From a virus (taxonomy: Duplodnaviria > Heunggongvirae > Uroviricota > Caudoviricetes), in IMG/VR virus record IMGVR_UViG_2711768073_000015: a DNA stretch of 8,472 bases. One strand, given 5' to 3'. Position 1 is the first letter of the stretch, and each line of letters starts with the position of its first letter. The notes under the pieces were generated by a model, which was given only the letters and a program-made list of their open reading frames with translations, was not told the DNA's origin and made no database searches. Shown here piece after piece: positions 1 through 8,472 of this stretch. The position numbers were made by a program, and so were the translations under genes.

Positions 1-669
1 TTCCTGAATGGCAATATCGCGGGTGTGGGACACAATGGTGTCGATTTCTTCCGGATGAGCAAAGACCATCATATGCCAGTGCACGGTGCCGTCATGGTGA
101 GGCTCCACCGTGCGGATGCCATACCAGCGCAGGCCGTCGCGGTTCAGTTTCTTGCGGACCGCCGCAAAAAACGTGTTAACCAGGTAATCGCTGGAGTCGC
201 GCATGGTGGCCCCGTTCCATTTGGGGTTCGGATGACCGTTCTCCGTTGTTGCGTGGTATTTTGACGGGCAGGTGACAGTCAGAAACACCGCTCTGTCGCC
301 ACGGGCTTCGGCCAGAAGTTCCAGTCCCTTCATGGTGGCCATCATTTCTGCCTTACGGTGAACCGGGTTACTTACTCCCGCGTAATACACTGTCTCGAGA
401 TCAATCGTGAACCCGTCTTCATTTTCCAGCATGAAACTTTTCAGGAAATCGCGTGTTTTCTCGCGCTGTGCGCGAAACTCGCTTAACGCGTCCTGGCTCA
501 GATAGGGTGATGTTTTTCTGGAAACCAGACAGGCGGCGCGGAGTTGTTCTTCTCTCCACTCGCAACGTAACAGCCACAGTTTGCGTTTCCACCATTCCGC
601 ACAGGTCAGGCGAAGGATTGCGCCCGGCAGCAGCTCCGTGTCCGGTTCATTCCTCCGGTCTTTGTCTGT
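1..669. repeat. Direct repeat copy X1 of the gene A core segment (partner 1426..2094; offset 1425 bp)
   Basis: 1..669 aligns to 1426..2094 with a handful of substitutions and no indels (for example 25 matches 1450 and 453 matches 1878 in the ORF track). Homology may continue left of the window edge. Confidence 0.9.
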
Positions 670-2832
670 ATCAACGCCGTCAGGGAGCTGCGGCCACGGT
701 GCTGGCCGTTCTTCCGGCTGTTCTGTCCCGTTGTTGTCCGTTTCCTGTACACGGGGACAGTTATTGCCACGAGTCCAAGGGGCGGCAGGGCCGCCCTGAA
801 GGTCAAAACCATTTTCGCGGGTGCTGTCTTCCGCTTCCGGTTTGCGTCTTACCAGCTTCCAGTTATCCGGATGCGTGCACACACGGGAGGATTCCCCGAT
901 GAGTGGTGACCAGATCCCATAAATCTGTACGCTCTGTTCGCCGTAATCGTTCAGCTCTTCTGCGAGGTCGTAGGCGGTGCGAATCAGGTAGTCTTTGCGT
1001 GGAACAAGCACGCCACCCTGTTTTTCAATGTAGGTGGCAAAACACCCGGCATCAGCGGCAGCGAGTACCGCATCCATTGCGTCATCCTTCAGCCGTTGCG
1101 GGCCTTCCGGGTTGCGTGCCATCTGGCTGGCAAGGCGGCGTAGTTCACGCCACACCTGACGGGAGGGGATGCCAAAGAACTGGAACTGGCGGACCCGGTG
1201 AAGGCGCGCCCAGCCGATGGCGCGCTCCACGCTCTCGGCCATTGATTTTCCGGTTTCGTGGTCAACGCGTGGCTTGCCCGTTTTCGGGTCGATACCATCC
1301 ACGGCGCGGCTGTCCAGGTTCTTTCCGATGTAGGTGGCGATGTAGCTGGTTGGCGTGCCTTTTGAGCCGTCGACATACTCCACCTTAAAGCGCGGAGTAA
1401 TATCATTGCCCAGCTCGTGGCGGTCTTCCTGAATGGCAATATCGCGGGTGTGGGACACAATGGTGTCGATTTCTTCCGGATGAGCAAAGACCATCATATG
1501 CCAGTGCACGGTGCCGTCATGGTGAGGCTCCACCGTGCGGATGCCATACCAGCGCAGGCCGTCGCGGTTCAGTTTCTTGCGGACCGCCGCAAAAAACGTG
1601 TTAACCAGGTAATCGCTGGAGTCGCGCATGGTGGCCCCGTTCCATTTGGGATTCGGATGACCGTTCTCTGTTGTGGCGTGGTATTTTGACGGGCAGGTGA
1701 CAGTCAGAAACACCGCTCTGTCGCCACGGGCTTCGGCCAGAAGTTCCAGCCCCTTCATGGTGGCCATCATTTCTGCCTTACGGTGAATCGGGTTACTTAC
1801 TCCCGCGTAATACACTGTCTCGAGATCAATCGTGAACCCGTCTTCGTTTTCCAGCATGAAACTTTTCAGGAAATCGCGTGTTTTCTCGCGCTGTGCGCGA
1901 AACTCGCTTAACGCGTCCTGGCTCAGATAGGGTGATGTTTTTCTGGAAACCAGACAGGCGGCGCGGAGTTGTTCTTCTCTCCACTCGCAACGTAACAGCC
2001 ACAGTTTGCGTTTCCACCATTCCGCACAGGTCAGGCGAAGGATTGCGCCCGGCAGCAGCTCCGTGTCCGGTTCATTCCTCCGGTCTTTGTCTGTTGTCAG
2101 AGCGTCATAATGTGGAGGCATAGCGTGCAGGTGTAACGCCATGCGGGCCAGCATCTGATACGCCTTCAGCGTTACATCCATGGTCAGCTCGCCATCGGTC
2201 GCGCCAAAGCCATCGCAGAGTTTTTCAAAAGTGCCACTGAACATCGCCGCCGTCATGGTGGCCAGCGTCTGTATCTGGTGTTTGTTGAGCTGCGGCAGGT
2301 AAAGCAAATCGTCCAGGCGTTCGCGTCCGGCAAGGGAGCGATAGCCCGGTGTCAGCCAGCGGCTGTCGGTGCGGTCCAGACGTTCGAATATTTTGCGCAG
2401 GGTTCCGCGCGCGTAGCGTTCAGCCTGCCAGCTCTTTTTGCCTTTCTGACGATCGGCTTCCTGCTTCTTGCGCAGAAAAGAGAGGTGGCGGCTCAGAGGT
2501 TCACGCAGATAAACGGGAAGCACCTTCAGTGTGGCAAAAGCACGGGCCACCGGGTCTTGTTCTGTTGCCTGACGCTTGCTGATGATGCTTTGTGCCAGCT
2601 TTTCACGCTGTCCGGCTTCCTCAAGGGATGCCATGAGTTTTTTACCCACGGTGGATTGTGCGAAAAAGGCTTCTTCCTTCGCTTCCTGTTCTTCCTGTGC
2701 CCTTTTGTTTGCCTCAAGGTAGTAACGGATGGCGCGTTGCAGGTCGGTTTCAGTTTCCTGCCTGCGCTCCGTAAATCTGGCCGGATCAATGGCTGGCCGT
2801 GGTTCATTCCAGCTCCATGCAAACGCACTCAT
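1..2832 (-). CDS. A: Replication initiation endonuclease, P2 gpA family (HUH rolling-circle initiator); partial, runs off the window at its 3' end; contains an in-frame internal repeat
   Basis: Minus-strand frame (codons at 3k+1..3k+3) is open from ATG 2832..2830 to the window edge in every segment I hand-translated (1..420 and 1321..1440); 421..1320 and 1441..2830 were not fully hand-translated, so that stretch is inferred. The ORF track omits it, presumably because no stop lies inside the window. Translation shows TSPYLSQDALSEFRAQREKTRDFLKSFMLENEDG, the HUH motif GIRTVEPHHDGTVHWHMMVF (encoded at 1486..1545 and again at 61..120) and paired tyrosines SYIATYIGK (1321..1347), matching the motif order I recall for P2 protein A. 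Confidence 0.85.
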   Translation of the reverse strand, partial: MSAFAWSWNEPRPAIDPARFTERRQETETDLQRAIRYYLEANKRAQEEQEAKEEAFFAQSTVGKKLMASLEEAGQREKLAQSIISKRQATEQDPVARAFATLKVLPVYLREPLSRHLSFLRKKQEADRQKGKKSWQAERYARGTLRKIFERLDRTDSRWLTPGYRSLAGRERLDDLLYLPQLNKHQIQTLATMTAAMFSGTFEKLCDGFGATDGELTMDVTLKAYQMLARMALHLHAMPPHYDALTTDKDRRNEPDTELLPGAILRLTCAEWWKRKLWLLRCEWREEQLRAACLVSRKTSPYLSQDALSEFRAQREKTRDFLKSFMLENEDGFTIDLETVYYAGVSNPIHRKAEMMATMKGLELLAEARGDRAVFLTVTCPSKYHATTENGHPNPKWNGATMRDSSDYLVNTFFAAVRKKLNRDGLRWYGIRTVEPHHDGTVHWHMMVFAHPEEIDTIVSHTRDIAIQEDRHELGNDITPRFKVEYVDGSKGTPTSYIATYIGKNLDSRAVDGIDPKTGKPRVDHETGKSMAESVERAIGWARLHRVRQFQFFGIPSRQVWRELRRLASQMARNPEGPQRLKDDAMDAVLAAADAGCFATYIEKQGGVLVPRKDYLIRTAYDLAEELNDYGEQSVQIYGIWSPLIGESSRVCTHPDNWKLVRRKPEAEDSTRENGFDLQGGPAAPWTRGNNCPRVQETDNNGTEQPEERPAPWPQLPDGVDTDKDRRNEPDTELLPGAILRLTCAEWWKRKLWLLRCEWREEQLRAACLVSRKTSPYLSQDALSEFRAQREKTRDFLKSFMLENEDGFTIDLETVYYAGVSNPVHRKAEMMATMKGLELLAEARGDRAVFLTVTCPSKYHATTENGHPNPKWNGATMRDSSDYLVNTFFAAVRKKLNRDGLRWYGIRTVEPHHDGTVHWHMMVFAHPEEIDTIVSHTRDIAIQE
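1426..2094. repeat. Direct repeat copy X2 (partner 1..669)
   Basis: Same alignment. Identity ends at 2094/2095, where the two copies continue into different sequence (670.. versus 2095..). Confidence 0.9.
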
Positions 2833-2921
2833 GGCTGGTATCCCGTCACGCGCTGCCACTCCTGTGAGAAGAGGGCGGAAAGGCGGTTAAATTCAGCGGA
2901 GTATTCAATCAGCGAGGCACA
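1799..2921. repeat. Tandem duplication unit, copy 1 (1123 bp)
   Basis: 1799..2921 aligns to 2922..4044 at a constant offset of 1123 with scattered substitutions (for example g2825 versus t3948). The two copies abut directly, head to tail. Confidence 0.9.
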
Positions 2922-3955
2922 ACTCCCGCGTAATACACTGTCTCGAGATCAATCGTGAACCCGTCTTCATTTTCCAGCATGAAACTTTTCAGGAAATCGC
3001 GTGTTTTCTCGCGCTGTGCGCGAAACTCGCTTAACGCGTCCTGGCTCAGATAGGGTGATGTTTTTCTGGAAACCAGACAGGCGGCGCGGAGTTGTTCTTC
3101 TCTCCACTCGCAACGTAACAGCCACAGTTTGCGTTTCCACCATTCCGCACAGGTCAGGCGAAGGATTGCGCCCGGCAGCAGCTCCGTGTCCGGTTCGTTC
3201 CTCCGGTCTTTGTCTGTTGTCAGTGCGTCATAATGTGGAGGCATGGCGTGCAGGTGTAACGCCATGCGGGCCAGCATCTGATACGCCTTCAGCGTTACAT
3301 CCATGGTCAGTTCGCCATCAGTCGCGCCAAAGCCATCGCAGAGTTTTTCGAAGGTGCTGCTGAACATCGCCGCCGTCATGGTGGCCAGCGTCTGTATCTG
3401 GTGTTTGTTGAGCTGCGGCAGGTAAAGCAAATCGTCCAGGCGTTCGCGTCCGGCAAGGGAGCGATAGCCCGGTGTCAGCCAGCGGCTGTCGGTGCGGTCC
3501 AGACGTTCGAATATTTTGCGCAGGGTTCCGCGCGCGTAGCGTTCAGCCTGCCAGCTCTTTTTGCCTTTCTGACGATCGGCTTCCTGCTTCTTGCGCAGAA
3601 AAGAGAGGTGGCGGCTCAGAGGTTCACGCAGATAAACGGGAAGCACCTTCAGTGTGGCAAAAGCACGGGCCACCGGGTCTTGTTCTGTTGCCTGACGCTT
3701 GCTGATGATGCTTTGTGCCAGCTTTTCACGCTGTCCGGCTTCCTCAAGGGATGCCATGAGTTTTTTACCCACGGTGGATTGTGCGAAAAAGGCTTCCTCC
3801 TTCGCTTCCTGTTCTTCCAGAGCCTTTTTGTCTGCCTCAAGGTAGTAACGGATGGCGCGTTGCAGGTCGGTTTCAGTTTCCTGCCTGTGCTCCGTAAATC
3901 TGGCCGGATCAATGGCTGGTCGTGGTTCATTCCAGCTCCATGCAAACTCACTCAT
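2909..3955 (-). pseudogene. Truncated 5' duplicate of replication gene A (348 codons; lacks HUH and Tyr core)
   Basis: ATG at 3955..3953 overlaps the TGA of the upstream ORF (ATGA). Translation MSEFAWSWNEPRPAID... is near-identical to the N-terminus of the copy starting at 2832. The frame breaks 13 nt after the duplication junction (2921/2922) at TGA 2911..2909 because the 1123-bp unit is not a multiple of 3. The ORF track lists it from a GTG at 3982. Confidence 0.6.
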
Positions 3956-4044
3956 GGCTGGTATCCCGTCACGCGCTGCCACTCCTGCAAGAAGATGGTG
4001 GAAAGGCGGTTAAATTCAGCGGTGTATTCACTCAGCGAGGCACA
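2922..4044. repeat. Tandem duplication unit, copy 2 (1123 bp)
   Basis: As above. The segment 2922..3217 is a third copy of 374..669 and 1799..2094. Confidence 0.9.
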
Positions 4045-4341
4045 CCCGCCAGCAGTGCGATGCGCCAGCATTGCCGCAAATACGGAGGCCGGGGAGTCGT
4101 AATACGCCAGCAGTGATTCGCCGTGCGGTGTCAGGCAGTGCAACGCCAGTCCGTGTGGTGTGAAGTCCACGCGGTAGCAGTCGTCTACTGTGAAATAAAG
4201 GGTATCCACATTCTCCGGTTTTGTAGTGCGTGCTCTGTTGTCACGACCACGGATGTAAAGATCAAATAATCCTTGGAGAACGGGAGCCAGACGGGTGTCC
4301 TGTGTGCGCACCCATCTTGTGAAGTCATGAGCGTCAATCAT
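3952..4341 (-). CDS. Hypothetical phage early protein (129 aa), immediately upstream of and coupled to gene A
   Basis: ORF track; ATG at 4341; stop TGA 3954..3952 overlaps the A-type start codon. A copy of its last 89 bp is duplicated at 2833..2921. Confidence 0.6.
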   Translation of the reverse strand: MIDAHDFTRWVRTQDTRLAPVLQGLFDLYIRGRDNRARTTKPENVDTLYFTVDDCYRVDFTPHGLALHCLTPHGESLLAYYDSPASVFAAMLAHRTAGGCASLSEYTAEFNRLSTIFLQEWQRVTGYQP

Positions 4342-4449
4342 GCTGCAATTCTCTCTACTAAGGATGTGCGAAGGCTTCCTGCCAAAAAACTCAGAAGCGG
4401 TCGGTTACAGAAATTGGCGTTCTACGAGTAGTTATTGCTGGCTTGAGGT

Positions 4450-4668
4450 TCATTTCTGTTTAATTCCGTGCATGCTGTAGAAGAAATCAAAAGTGTTATC
4501 TATGCGTATCATGAGCTCACGCTGCATCGCTTCTGGTGTTTCTGGTTCACCTGGTGAGCCAACTCCCGCGAAGAAATCACCGATCTCGCTTTGAATAAGT
4601 GCCTTTAGCGTTGCTGAGGAATTCAGGTGTGTGCGGTGATGTCTGCGAGTGATTCTTCTCCTGCTCAT
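4450..4668 (-). CDS. Hypothetical small phage protein (72 aa)
   Basis: ORF track; ATG 4668..4666 overlaps the TGA 4667..4665 of the upstream ORF (ATGA coupling). Confidence 0.5.
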   Translation of the reverse strand: MSRRRITRRHHRTHLNSSATLKALIQSEIGDFFAGVGSPGEPETPEAMQRELMIRIDNTFDFFYSMHGIKQK

Positions 4669-4868
4669 TTACGTGAATCCTGTACCTGTCGGATAAGATT
4701 CACCCGCGCCACATTAGTGGCGCAGAAGTAAGTACCGTCAGTGAGATAGATGTGGTGTGCATCCTTTTCTGAGCGGTGTTTGTCGATTGTGGTAATCAGG
4801 CGTTCGTCGACTTCGTATTCACGTCCTCTGGAAGTGAAACGAACGACAGGAAAATGCTTAATTGCCAT
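4665..4868 (-). CDS. Hypothetical small phage protein (67 aa)
   Basis: ORF track; ATG 4868..4866 preceded on the minus strand by AGGAGG (complement of 4873..4878) with a 4-nt spacer. Confidence 0.55.
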   Translation of the reverse strand: MAIKHFPVVRFTSRGREYEVDERLITTIDKHRSEKDAHHIYLTDGTYFCATNVARVNLIRQVQDSRK

Positions 4869-4955
4869 TACGCCTCCTGGGCGTGTGCGAATACCTCCGC
4901 GAATGCGGATTGTTTTTACATTTTCTTATTTAACCTAGGGTTTTTATTTGCGCTG

Positions 4956-5069
4956 TTATTCGCCAGTGAAAAAGCGTTCAATCTTTTTTACTGAATGAAT
5001 AATTTGCATAATCCCAATGGCGCAGACCACCGAAATAATCAGAACAAGCCATGAGATAAATATACTCAT
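4956..5069 (-). CDS. Putative small hydrophobic membrane peptide (37 aa, MSIFISWLVLIISVVCAIGIMQIIHSVKKIERFFTGE)
   Basis: Hand-translated; not in the ORF track (too short). ATG 5069..5067 overlaps the TGA 5068..5066 of the upstream 80-aa ORF; stop TAA at 4958..4956. Residues 3 to 24 are almost entirely hydrophobic, consistent with one transmembrane helix. Confidence 0.4.
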   Translation of the reverse strand: MSIFISWLVLIISVVCAIGIMQIIHSVKKIERFFTGE

Positions 5070-5308
5070 GCAATATTCCCCAGCTTATACGGTTCAATAT
5101 GCTCCCCGCATTCTGCGGCACAGATCAGCTCGGAAAGTTCGTTAAGTGCATCCAGATCATCAGCGTAAAAAGCCACGTCATACAGACTCCGGATTGCCCT
5201 GGTCAATGAGTCACGGGCTGCACGTTCAGCATGAGCACCTGATGCACTTAAGCGAAAATAAAAACGCTCAAGTGCTTTGTTAATGAGAGTTTTATATTCT
5301 TTGCCCAT
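5066..5308 (-). CDS. Hypothetical small phage protein (80 aa)
   Basis: ORF track; ATG 5308..5306; lies 11 nt downstream of the stop of the preceding ORF in the same operon. Confidence 0.55.
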   Translation of the reverse strand: MGKEYKTLINKALERFYFRLSASGAHAERAARDSLTRAIRSLYDVAFYADDLDALNELSELICAAECGEHIEPYKLGNIA

Positions 5309-5319
5309 CGCAACGCCCT

Positions 5320-5598
5320 TTAATCTGCTTTCTGAATTTCAGCTTCTGAATCTATACAAATAATTTCGATATAGGGTTCATCGCCATTAATCTTACGTGC
5401 TTTTTCAGCTTCGCTAATGATTCCGTGTACAGTCTGGTACGGAAGTTCTACGGTCAGGCGCGTGCCGTTCAGATAAACGTAAGTAGCTGCATTTTTTTCT
5501 GATGGGACAACTCCATCAATAGCTGATGCGCGCAATAACAGTTCACCGCGAAAATCAATAAAACGGATAAATACACCTTGTGCATGCTCTTTGGTCAT
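5320..5598 (-). CDS. Hypothetical small phage protein (92 aa; start chosen at internal ATG)
   Basis: ORF track gives 5320..5697, but that N-terminus overlaps the upstream ORF. ATG at 5598..5596 is preceded by AGGTG (complement of 5603..5607) and lies 10 nt after the upstream stop (5611..5609). Confidence 0.5.
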   Translation of the reverse strand: MTKEHAQGVFIRFIDFRGELLLRASAIDGVVPSEKNAATYVYLNGTRLTVELPYQTVHGIISEAEKARKINGDEPYIEIICIDSEAEIQKAD

Positions 5599-5608
5599 AA
5601 CGCACCTG

Positions 5609-5947
5609 TTATAAATCAGTCTGTTTAATAAAACTTTGCCTGCGAAGCAGACGATCAACCGTGCGAAGTGCTTCGTACAATGTGAAATCCTGTCCAAACT
5701 GATTGTCGCCGTTGCTCAGAGCAAAAATGCGGTTTCCGGTAAATGGGTTGCGTTGGCATCTCTGAACCACGATTCCAGCTTTTTCAATCAGCCAGGTGTG
5801 TTCGCCAATTTGTTTTACTGTATGGCCATCTGGCGTTGCGTGCGTCTCGCTCAGGCTGTAGCGGATGTTGCTGCGTGATGCGCTGGTAGCGAAACGGTTA
5901 GCTTGGCGTTCCGTTTCGGTGCGAAAATTACGGCGTTGCTTCAGCAT
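5609..5947 (-). CDS. Hypothetical phage early protein (112 aa)
   Basis: ORF track; ATG 5947..5945 preceded by GAGGTG (complement of 5953..5958); 14 nt after the stop of the first early gene. Confidence 0.55.
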   Translation of the reverse strand: MLKQRRNFRTETERQANRFATSASRSNIRYSLSETHATPDGHTVKQIGEHTWLIEKAGIVVQRCQRNPFTGNRIFALSNGDNQFGQDFTLYEALRTVDRLLRRQSFIKQTDL

Positions 5948-5961
5948 AAAATGACACCTCG

Positions 5962-6240
5962 TTATTTTGTCATCTGCACGTATTTCTCTGCGTTTCTGAT
6001 GGTTTTCAGGAAAATTGCGAAGAGATTTACTGTACGTTTTGAGTTTTTTTCTTCTTGGTTGATGGGAAGGGCTGCTCTGTCAGCCTGCCTTTTCACTGCA
6101 TTAACAGTTTGATTGGTACGCTTCGCGTAATCTTTCAGGCTTTCTTCGAGTACCGGTAATCCATGCTCATCGCGGTATGGGTAGAACGCCGCCAAACGCT
6201 CAAAATCCGCTTGCTCGTATGTGTTCAAGAGCTTTGTCAT
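5962..6240 (-). CDS. First gene of the early (lytic) operon, in the Cox/Apl position; sequence not recognisably P2 Cox
   Basis: ORF track (92 aa); divergent from the C-like repressor gene across a 91-bp switch region. The call is positional only. Confidence 0.5.
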   Translation of the reverse strand: MTKLLNTYEQADFERLAAFYPYRDEHGLPVLEESLKDYAKRTNQTVNAVKRQADRAALPINQEEKNSKRTVNLFAIFLKTIRNAEKYVQMTK

Positions 6241-6331
6241 GATGTGATAACCTGTTCAGTCTGTGGTTATTTGTTGCTAAAAGTCGTCTATAGGCGACTT
6301 TTAGGGTTAATTTAGTCGTCTGGAGACCACC
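6241..6331. promoter_or_regulatory. Divergent immunity-switch region with candidate operator sites
   Basis: Near-perfect 28-bp palindrome ctaaaagtcgtcta/taggcgacttttag at 6277..6304 (10-bp arms perfect, one mismatch in the inner 4 bp). Direct repeats of agtcgtct at 6282..6289 and 6314..6321. GGAG at 6322..6325 sits 6 nt before the repressor ATG at 6332. Confidence 0.5.
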
Positions 6332-6643
6332 ATGTCAAGTGGGTACGAAAAAAAACTGAAAGAGATACGGAAAAGTGAAGGGTTAACTCAAGCTGAGTTT
6401 GCTGATGTTACTGGGATAAATCTCGGAACTATAAAGAATTATGAGAGCGGTAAAAGAGAGGTTGGTTTAAGCGTTGTTGATCGCGTAATTAATTCTAAGG
6501 ATTTCGAAAAATACACTATATGGCTTATGACGGGAAAAACAAATGAGGCTGCTGGGCAGATCAGTCCCTCTCTCTCCCCTGATGGGCCAGAAAACACATC
6601 GTCTTCTCAAAAGCCCCGCAAGACTGGTACACAGCCCGGCTAA
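6332..6643 (+). CDS. C: Immunity repressor, P2 C-like (helix-turn-helix)
   Basis: ORF track (103 aa). The segments LTQAEFADVTGINLGTIKNYESGKRE and FEKYTIWLMTGKTNEAAGQISPSLSPDG closely parallel the P2 C repressor as I recall it. Positioned immediately upstream of int on the same strand, as in P2. Confidence 0.8.
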   Translation: MSSGYEKKLKEIRKSEGLTQAEFADVTGINLGTIKNYESGKREVGLSVVDRVINSKDFEKYTIWLMTGKTNEAAGQISPSLSPDGPENTSSSQKPRKTGTQPG

Positions 6644-7672: not shown

Positions 7673-8035
7673 GTGAAGTTTCATTTAGATGAACTTAAAA
7701 GAATGGCAACGCTCGATAATTTTGCGCGTTTTCTCAATGAGTCGTCTACGAATGAAAAATGTTTGTCGTGTGGCGATACGGATATGTACATGTATTTGAC
7801 GAATATTGTTGAGGTGGGGCCTGAGCCGAAAACTGCTGAGGAGTGTGATTTAGGCACTTTTGTTATGCTTGATTACATCGGTCCATTTACTGGGTATCCG
7901 GGATATGAGGGACATGATCGGGAAAATATCCATAACTATGAATTCCGACTTACCTGTAACAGATGTGGGTTTGTTCATCGTTACTCGGCCCGGGCCTTTA
8001 TGAACTGGGTAGGCAAGCAGGGTGATGAGAAGTGA
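7673..8035 (+). CDS. Hypothetical protein with two CxxC pairs (putative zinc-binding), 120 aa; translationally coupled to int
   Basis: GTG start at 7673, 2 nt after the int stop, with AGGAGG at 7658..7663 (9-nt spacer) inside the int 3' end. Motifs CLSCGD and CNRCGF. Stop TGA 8033..8035. Confidence 0.6.
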   Translation: MKFHLDELKRMATLDNFARFLNESSTNEKCLSCGDTDMYMYLTNIVEVGPEPKTAEECDLGTFVMLDYIGPFTGYPGYEGHDRENIHNYEFRLTCNRCGFVHRYSARAFMNWVGKQGDEK

Positions 8036-8472
8036 TGGCAGAGAATGTTGCACATATTTCGCGGTTCAGAAAAAAGAAAGAGAATGCCTATAATGTATCC
8101 AACAACCAAGTAACAGGAAGTGGTAATGATGGAGGTGATGGCATGAATGACGACCTTGAACGGCGGGTCAGTTGCCTGGAAAGTGATGTGACTGAAATCA
8201 AAAACAACCTGATTACTCTCACCACAAGAAGCGAATCCTTTGCTACCAAATCTGATGTACTGGAGATTCGCGAAGGGTTGAGGCTTGAGATGGCAGAATC
8301 GCGCCAATCCCTGAAGTCTGAGATGGCTGATTTACGCCAGTCTCTGAAAGTTGAGATGGCTGAGCATCGTACTGAACTTCAGAAATCATTTGCAAATCAG
8401 ACTTGGTTACTCACAGGTATTGTCCTGTCTGCGATGGCCGTGCTTGTGGCTGTGGTTACTGTTATTAAGTAA
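8035..8472 (+). CDS. Tail-anchored coiled-coil membrane protein (C-terminal TM helix); start ambiguous (8035 or 8143)
   Basis: ATG 8035 overlaps the upstream TGA (TGATG). An alternative ATG at 8143 has a strong GGAGGTG at 8131..8137 with a 5-nt spacer. Three 11-residue repeats EMAESRQSLKS / EMADLRQSLKV / EMAEHRTELQK precede a hydrophobic C-terminus WLLTGIVLSAMAVLVAVVTVIK (about 8404..8469). Stop TAA 8470..8472 is the last codon of the window. Confidence 0.65.
   Translation: MAENVAHISRFRKKKENAYNVSNNQVTGSGNDGGDGMNDDLERRVSCLESDVTEIKNNLITLTTRSESFATKSDVLEIREGLRLEMAESRQSLKSEMADLRQSLKVEMAEHRTELQKSFANQTWLLTGIVLSAMAVLVAVVTVIK
8287..8385 (+). repeat. Three imperfect 33-bp tandem coding repeats
   Basis: gagatggcagaatcgcgccaatccctgaagtct / gagatggctgatttacgccagtctctgaaagtt / gagatggctgagcatcgtactgaacttcagaaa, encoding the 11-residue coiled-coil repeats of the last gene. 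Confidence 0.8.

Follow-up and report, generated by a model that had tools for sequence, protein, structure and literature searches.

A small conserved gene for a predicted single-pass membrane protein follows DUF4754 in the early operon of P88-type prophages of Escherichia coli

The stretch of DNA analysed here (the window, 8,472 nucleotides) holds a P88-type prophage (P2 family, genus Xuanwuvirus) that adjoins btuC, and positions 4400-6400 of the window are 100% identical to the chromosome of Escherichia coli 13KWH46. The integrase and C-type repressor genes lie on the plus strand. Divergent from them, the minus strand carries in order a cox-like gene, a DUF4761 gene, a 92-aa gene, a DUF4754 gene, a small open reading frame (ORF), an 87-nt gap, several small variable genes and, last in this order, the gene for GPA, the replication endonuclease. 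The original prediction had placed the small ORF in an early operon, and gene order together with the analogy to P2 and 186 makes this a sound reading, with the genes belonging to the Pe/cox-side operon of a temperate P2-family phage. By analogy with P2, a promoter-like sequence at the head of this gene series is presumed to drive the operon as the early promoter Pe. The following features define the small ORF and its setting:

Positions 6309-6338, minus strand: promoter-like TTGACA-18-TAAATT, upstream of the cox-like gene and facing the C-repressor gene; presumed early promoter Pe.
Positions 5066-5308, minus strand: upstream gene of the DUF4754 family, 80 aa (Pfam PF15946, E = 2.8e-54; synteny).
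Positions 5076-5081, minus strand: Shine-Dalgarno-like GGGGAA, 6 nt upstream of the small-ORF ATG and within the last codons of the DUF4754 gene.
Positions 5066-5069, minus strand: ATGA start/stop overlap of the small ORF with the DUF4754 gene, a signal for probable translational coupling.
Positions 4956-5069, minus strand: predicted small membrane protein gene of 37 codons, with its ATG at 5069-5067 and its stop TAA at 4958-4956.

The small ORF is present exactly where it had been predicted, on the minus strand (the strand had been left unstated), and encodes the 37-aa peptide MSIFISWLVLIISVVCAIGIMQIIHSVKKIERFFTGE. Its start codon had also been said to overlap the stop codon of the gene upstream, and this overlap was seen, with the ATG and the TGA of the 80-aa DUF4754 gene (5068-5066) overlapping as ATGA. 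The 8.5-kb window holds 94 ORFs of at least 30 aa, so numerous that a length of 37 codons is not significant in itself, and the small ORF is raised above chance because it is conserved among related loci.

Direct repeats occupy positions 1-4044 (1799-2921 with 2922-4044, 97.9%; 1-669 with 1426-2094, 99.1%; 374-669 with 2922-3217), and the 5' part of the GPA gene and the 129-aa gene upstream of it are present two to three times relative to E. coli 13KWH46, either because they were partially duplicated in tandem or because the assembly collapsed two P88-like prophages. On the plus strand, a cargo ORF between integrase and btuC (7673-8035) encodes 120 aa with two CxxC pairs, and a second cargo ORF (8032-8472, running off the end) encodes at least 146 aa, has heptad-like repeats of LRQSLK-x-EMAE and a hydrophobic segment towards the C-terminus, and is the second most hydrophobic ORF of the window; neither had a credible match in PADLOC. 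In one E. coli genome (locus L091, positions 1-1795), a Mu-type transposase gene replaces the int-C-cox switch region beside the DUF4761-DUF4754-small-ORF block, with GPA still downstream despite this replacement, an arrangement that may be a hybrid or an insertion.

The small ORF had been described as unannotated, which was right for the ORF track available at the time and wrong for public records. RefSeq lists it as a CDS for a "hypothetical protein" in E. coli 13KWH46 (WP_000021663.1), it appears as WP_000021655.1 in O157:H7 SS17 and as gp07 (YP_009113050.1, "membrane protein") in phage P88, and the exact peptide is found in UniRef as A0A376J7N2_ECOLX and on at least 1000 contigs. The P88 and two RefSeq entries are 89-100% identical, occupy the same place after DUF4754 with the same ATGA overlap, and were named by prediction, as annotation only, with neither experimental work nor a curated family behind them. 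Judged by sequence and position there is no difference between these entries and the small ORF, which is the same gene and whose existence is already on record. Of 5426 complete E. coli genomes, 1376 (~25%) contain the DUF4754 gene, the small ORF and the intergenic stretch together, placing the small-gene cassette in prophages of about a quarter of E. coli genomes, O157:H7 and ST131 included. Literature searches for DUF4754, the accessions and the peptide string found no reports, including in the supplements of two small-ORF surveys, and no Ribo-seq or proteomic record of the product was found.

Two further names attached to this region in public records look unfounded: the 129-aa ORF at 3952-4341 (minus strand) is called "inositol monophosphatase" in RefSeq and the DUF4754 gene (5066-5308, minus strand) is called "DNA modification methyltransferase" in GenBank KP063541, and no such Pfam domain was found in either. 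A contig scan of genomes with DUF4754 returned 2 loci only, one of them labelled Vagococcus. This contig (L003, NZ_JBQPOM010000071.1, labelled Vagococcus sp. WN89Y, a Gram-positive assembly) contains a prophage region with DUF4754 at 98% identity and an intact small ORF, and is probably assembly contamination.

Conservation of the ORF and of its ATGA coupling in related phages had been proposed as a check of the original prediction, and on examination both were conserved at the 85/85 close loci compared and at distant loci as well. The close loci were the window, four other loci and 80 IMG/VR contigs selected through DUF4754; as the 80 were picked for an identical DUF4754, they are closely related and hence not independent observations. 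The frame is open from the ATGA at all 85 loci, which represent 37 DNA alleles and 28 protein variants, and no stop or frameshift was found in the part encoding the predicted transmembrane helix at these loci or in four distant subfamilies. Searched exhaustively and without a profile, 1.84 billion representative proteins yielded only nine relatives, all of 22-59 aa. The four most distant (65, 54, 54 and 44% peptide identity) were each traced to a contig; every one carries an E. coli P2-like early operon in which the start of the small gene overlaps the last 4 nt of DUF4754, and this is also the arrangement for P0003, P0005 and P0007 (54-65% identity). The junction sequence [C/T][G]CATGA is found at 85/85 loci and at the distant loci L085, L086, L090, L091, L094 and L004, and at distant loci a purine-rich Shine-Dalgarno sequence (AAGGGG, GAGGAG, GAGGTG or AGGAGG) is kept 4-9 nt upstream despite differing DUF4754 C-terminal residues.

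The pattern of substitution is that of a protein-coding frame. Between diverged pairs, dN/dS is 0.24-0.37 (Nei-Gojobori), and the mean pN/pS is 0.39 in the small-ORF frame, against values of 0.62-2.47 for the five remaining frames, each of them interrupted by stops; antisense or alternative-frame coding was rejected on account of these stops and ratios. Substitutions rank by codon position as 3 > 1 >> 2 (for example, 13/5/23 for positions 1/2/3), amino-acid replacements are hydrophobic for hydrophobic, and the close alleles differ by 17 synonymous variants over 25 sites and by 16 non-synonymous variants over 86 sites (ratio 0.27). Over long distances, the small peptide is better conserved than DUF4754 (pN 0.26 vs 0.48). 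From these comparisons we conclude that the small frame is most probably translated and that its amino-acid sequence is under purifying selection. With a conserved frame, purifying selection and its own Shine-Dalgarno and ATGA signals, the small ORF has the sequence properties of a real, conserved gene.

The predicted product divides into two segments:

Positions 5007-5063, minus strand: predicted transmembrane helix, codons 3-21, IFISWLVLIISVVCAIGIM, summed dGapp -3.35 kcal/mol.
Positions 4959-5006, minus strand: putative amphipathic cytosolic tail, codons 22-37, QIIHSVKKIERFFTGE, recognised by its hydrophobic moment and conserved columns.

The description of the product as a single-pass small membrane protein is supported by the hydrophobicity of residues 3-21, by the modelled helix and by the charge pattern, each of them predicted from sequence. 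Residues 3-21 form the most hydrophobic 19-mer among the 96 six-frame ORFs of at least 30 aa in the window on the summed Hessa dGapp scale, and the corresponding sums in relatives range from -2.9 to -4.0 kcal/mol. A hydrophobic stretch had been claimed for residues 3 to 24; the string quoted for the stretch turned out to be residues 5-24. No charge lies N-terminal of the hydrophobic core, and the C-terminal side carries 3 K/R residues here and 3-5 among relatives, so that the positive-inside rule predicts an N-out/C-in topology. The single-sequence AF2 model is one continuous helix over residues 2-34 (pLDDT 92.9). With one bilayer-long hydrophobic segment in fewer than the 50 aa commonly allowed, the peptide falls within the class of small single-pass membrane proteins.

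The tail is conserved along with the helix. The segment R/Q22-T35 has a hydrophobic moment of 0.41-0.72, a tail motif K-x-I-E-x-x-F-T-G-(E/D) is conserved among subfamilies, and the residues S6, W7, L10, G19, I23, I24, K28, I30, E31 and F34 are invariant across subfamilies, with T35 and G36 conserved. Seven residues (S6, L10, A17, I24, K28, E31 and T35) fall within a 60-degree helical arc; a conserved face as a packing interface is not claimed, as the periodicity is not significant (permutation p about 0.1, four subfamily sequences). A lipoprotein or secreted peptide was rejected on the grounds that C16 is not conserved, with M or F at this position in P0003 and P0007, and that there is no K/R before the core and no n-region.

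The part of the gene encoding the tail contains two homopolymers:

Positions 4984-4989 (A6) and 4969-4973 (T5), within the minus-strand ORF: homopolymers in the tail-coding part, sites of recurrent 1-nt deletions.

Deletions in A6 or T5 shift the last 4-9 codons and give a product of 45 aa in P0002, P0004, PhiR44_2 and 7/85 of the close loci; these deletions may in part be sequencing errors. In phage Chuche, a mud isolate, codon 31 of the small ORF is a stop, and PhiR44_2, which grows on E. coli C, carries the 45-aa frameshift allele. As both phages have lost the tail, it is dispensable for plaque formation, and as it is also lost at 7/85 close loci, part of the conservation is soft. In the prophage-derived record 503458, DUF4754 and the small ORF are both frameshifted.

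Downstream of the small ORF lies one further conserved element:

Positions 4896-4909, no strand assigned: hairpin TCCGC-N4-GCGGA, a 14-nt palindrome, 46 nt downstream of the small-ORF stop.

At all loci compared (L002, L004, L085, L086, L090-L095), the stem of this hairpin is invariant and the loop variable, even where peptide identity is 54%. On the plus (antisense) strand the hairpin is followed by TTGTTTTT and is terminator-like; a sense-strand terminator was rejected because that strand has no U-tract, and a repeated operator because the hairpin occurs in a single copy in the whole P88 genome. At L094, a frameshifted small ORF reads through the hairpin. Homology between phages breaks 15-20 nt beyond it, and in these alignments the hairpin marks a mosaic boundary. 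In position, the small gene is comparable to fil and dhr of 186 and to orf78/B of P2, genes that close the first early block, with the cox/apl switch gene ahead of them and a structured gap directly behind. The 186 genes fil (75 aa) and dhr (66 aa) are non-essential host-takeover genes just before the terminator tR1, and differ from the small peptide in that their products are soluble and unrelated to it in sequence; the P88-type hairpin in turn differs from the P2/186 terminator at the analogous operon position by lacking a U-tract on the sense strand.

Searches with the small peptide against Pfam, PHROG, NCBIfam and PADLOC returned no credible family, and a PDB sequence search gave a chance match only (E = 0.83). 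Like TatA/TatE, the peptide has an N-out transmembrane helix followed by Gly and an amphipathic helix, but it is half as long and is not a member, membership requiring a score above the cut-off and a conserved F-G-x-K-K-L hinge. NCBIfam matches to TatA came from two relatives only (E = 0.004 and 0.11), and the assignment was rejected at a best score of 16.9 bits against a cut-off of 104 and an hhalign probability of 4% over 12 columns. In architecture, the peptide resembles SidA of Caulobacter and AcrZ, MgrB, MgtS and CydX of E. coli, proteins of ~30-50 aa with one transmembrane helix and a short charged cytosolic tail (CydX has 37 aa and an N-terminal transmembrane helix). SidA, AcrZ and MgrB are small membrane proteins that act by association with larger membrane proteins. 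There is no sequence relationship to any of the five by Pfam, NCBIfam or PDB search, and the small peptide differs from them in being phage-encoded and, by its predicted coupling, co-translated in an early lytic operon. By its predicted structure, the product belongs to a known kind, the small single-pass membrane proteins of phages and bacteria, and to no described family.

Host-takeover, toxin-like and superinfection-exclusion roles had been suggested for such peptides; for this one they are generic possibilities, and it matched no known family of toxins, exclusion or defence proteins. A membrane-damaging, toxin-like peptide of the Hok, Ibs, ShoB or pinholin-like sort, which would dissipate the proton-motive force and bring about host shut-off or premature killing, is an unlikely identity for this product. 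Its small size, extreme hydrophobicity and single transmembrane helix do recall the type I toxins (Hok/Gef, Ibs, ShoB, Ldr), and many small hydrophobic single-helix peptides are toxic on overexpression. Against this identity, Pfam and NCBIfam gave no match to Hok/Gef, Ldr, Ibs, TisB, ShoB and similar families, and in place of the separate transcription unit of a type I toxin, with its long leader and dedicated antisense or divergent small RNA, the small ORF is ATGA-coupled within a polycistronic early operon. Rfam identified no known small RNA in the window, and the sole terminator-like antisense signal, at the hairpin, stops before the small ORF. The transmembrane helix has no charged or polar pore-lining face. 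In addition, the gene lies outside the lysis cassette, where a holin or antiholin would be expected; in P88 this cassette (gp30-32, with gp30 the holin) is in the late region ~15 kb away. P88 also has a bona fide hok/gef gene elsewhere, gp52. This hok/gef-family (MokW-like) gene is at 34928-35068 of the P88 genome, near its right end and outside the window.

The constant association with DUF4754 raises a different reading, in which the small peptide is a membrane anchor or obligate partner of DUF4754, made with it in a fixed ratio by coupled synthesis and tethering it through the cytosolic tail. At all loci examined, whether DUF4754 identity is 100% or as low as ~35-45%, DUF4754 directly precedes the small gene and overlaps it by the same 4 nt, and the tail motif is conserved; this invariable adjacency and coupling are what a partner module would show. 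Co-inheritance and co-evolution of the two were not found. Between L090 and L091 (locus coordinates 3760-4450), DNA identity is ~50% through DUF4754 and rises at the ATGA to 97-100%, a level maintained over the next ~450 nt. This sharp recombination breakpoint falls exactly at the junction of DUF4754 and the small ORF and leaves an identical peptide allele behind DUF4754 alleles only ~50% identical in DNA. Conversely, the 28 peptide variants of the close loci stand behind one identical DUF4754 protein. Breakpoint and variants together weaken the case for an allele-matched complex, and indicate at the sequence level that the small ORF recombines independently of DUF4754 and is not its allele-matched partner. 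The tail-less alleles of isolated phages also speak against a tether, and the fold of DUF4754 offers no functional clue: its AF2 model is helical (pLDDT 88.8) and matches only generic helical bundles in the PDB by Foldseek (E >= 1.4). Proteins of 103-116 aa annotated as "DUF4754", considered as possible Rosetta-stone fusions, were rejected as such, being frameshifted reads into the wrong frame, mostly in low-quality read-level assemblies. An alternative-frame ORF of 47 codons (4978-5121, minus strand) corresponds to the C-terminal part of these public proteins. On balance, the anchor or partner reading is doubtful. Taken with the break in homology beyond the hairpin, the breakpoint at the ATGA junction gives the small ORF and the hairpin the appearance of a cassette flanked by two mosaic boundaries.

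A superinfection-exclusion or immunity factor that blocks the entry of incoming phage DNA at the inner membrane is quite improbable. Small inner-membrane phage exclusion proteins are known (T4 Imm, HK97 gp15), and the high allelic diversity behind a constant DUF4754 would suit such a role. The gene, however, is downstream of cox in an early lytic operon that would be shut off by the C repressor in lysogens, and this position speaks against exclusion of the classical kind, expressed from the prophage. The search for an internal promoter gave nothing convincing, with 2 promoter-like sites against 3.8 expected; PHROG and PADLOC gave no match to exclusion proteins of the T4 Imm/Sp, HK97 gp15 or P22 SieA type, and dN/dS well below 1 carries no arms-race signature. 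Finally, a non-functional protein whose frame is kept only for translation (coupling or anti-polarity) or for an overlapping nucleic-acid signal is very improbable, since the extreme shortness of the ORF, its repeatedly frameshifted or truncated C-terminal tail and its disruption in record 503458 are set against amino-acid-level constraint (dN/dS 0.24-0.37, conservative replacements, ten invariant residues), the lack of constraint in any other frame and a transmembrane part free of stops and frameshifts across the 85 close loci and 4 distant subfamilies.

The best explanation, to which we assign a probability of roughly 55%, is that the small ORF is a gene of P88-like prophages that encodes a bitopic inner-membrane micro-protein, expressed early in lytic growth and serving as an accessory factor. 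As the anatomy of the locus suggests, the gene, which lies downstream of cox, would be read from the early lytic promoter and translated by coupling to the DUF4754 stop through the ATGA and the conserved Shine-Dalgarno sequence. Early-operon transcription and coupling together imply that the peptide would be made only in lytic growth and not in the repressed lysogen. Once made, it would insert N-out/C-in into the inner membrane and would act there as a non-essential accessory factor of the phage in its host. Its transmembrane helix may pack against a host membrane protein while the tail contacts a cytosolic or interfacial partner, most plausibly in the manner of SidA, AcrZ or MgrB. The gene would be an independently exchangeable module rather than an allele-matched subunit of DUF4754.

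A more specific version of this accessory role is possible and is put forward tentatively. The peptide may represent an undescribed micro-protein family that binds and reprograms a specific host inner-membrane machine in the first minutes of lytic growth and is carried as an exchangeable cassette between the ATGA junction and the hairpin. Candidate targets would be the divisome (as for SidA), FtsH (as for lambda CIII), or a transporter or sensor.

The finding itself is real and widespread, solid but ordinary, and unsurprising; the small ORF can safely be retained in annotation as a "small membrane protein". Among phage genes, those for small membrane proteins are the least understood class, and this one is unusually widespread (1376 of 5426 E. 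coli genomes), better conserved than its neighbour and clearly selected, yet without a curated family or literature. Without a phenotype, it would simply join the annotated hypothetical proteins. Should it act on a host membrane machine, P2-family phages would possess in it a compact host-takeover factor that is easy to test, and it would offer a handle on the unknown DUF4761/DUF4754 early module.
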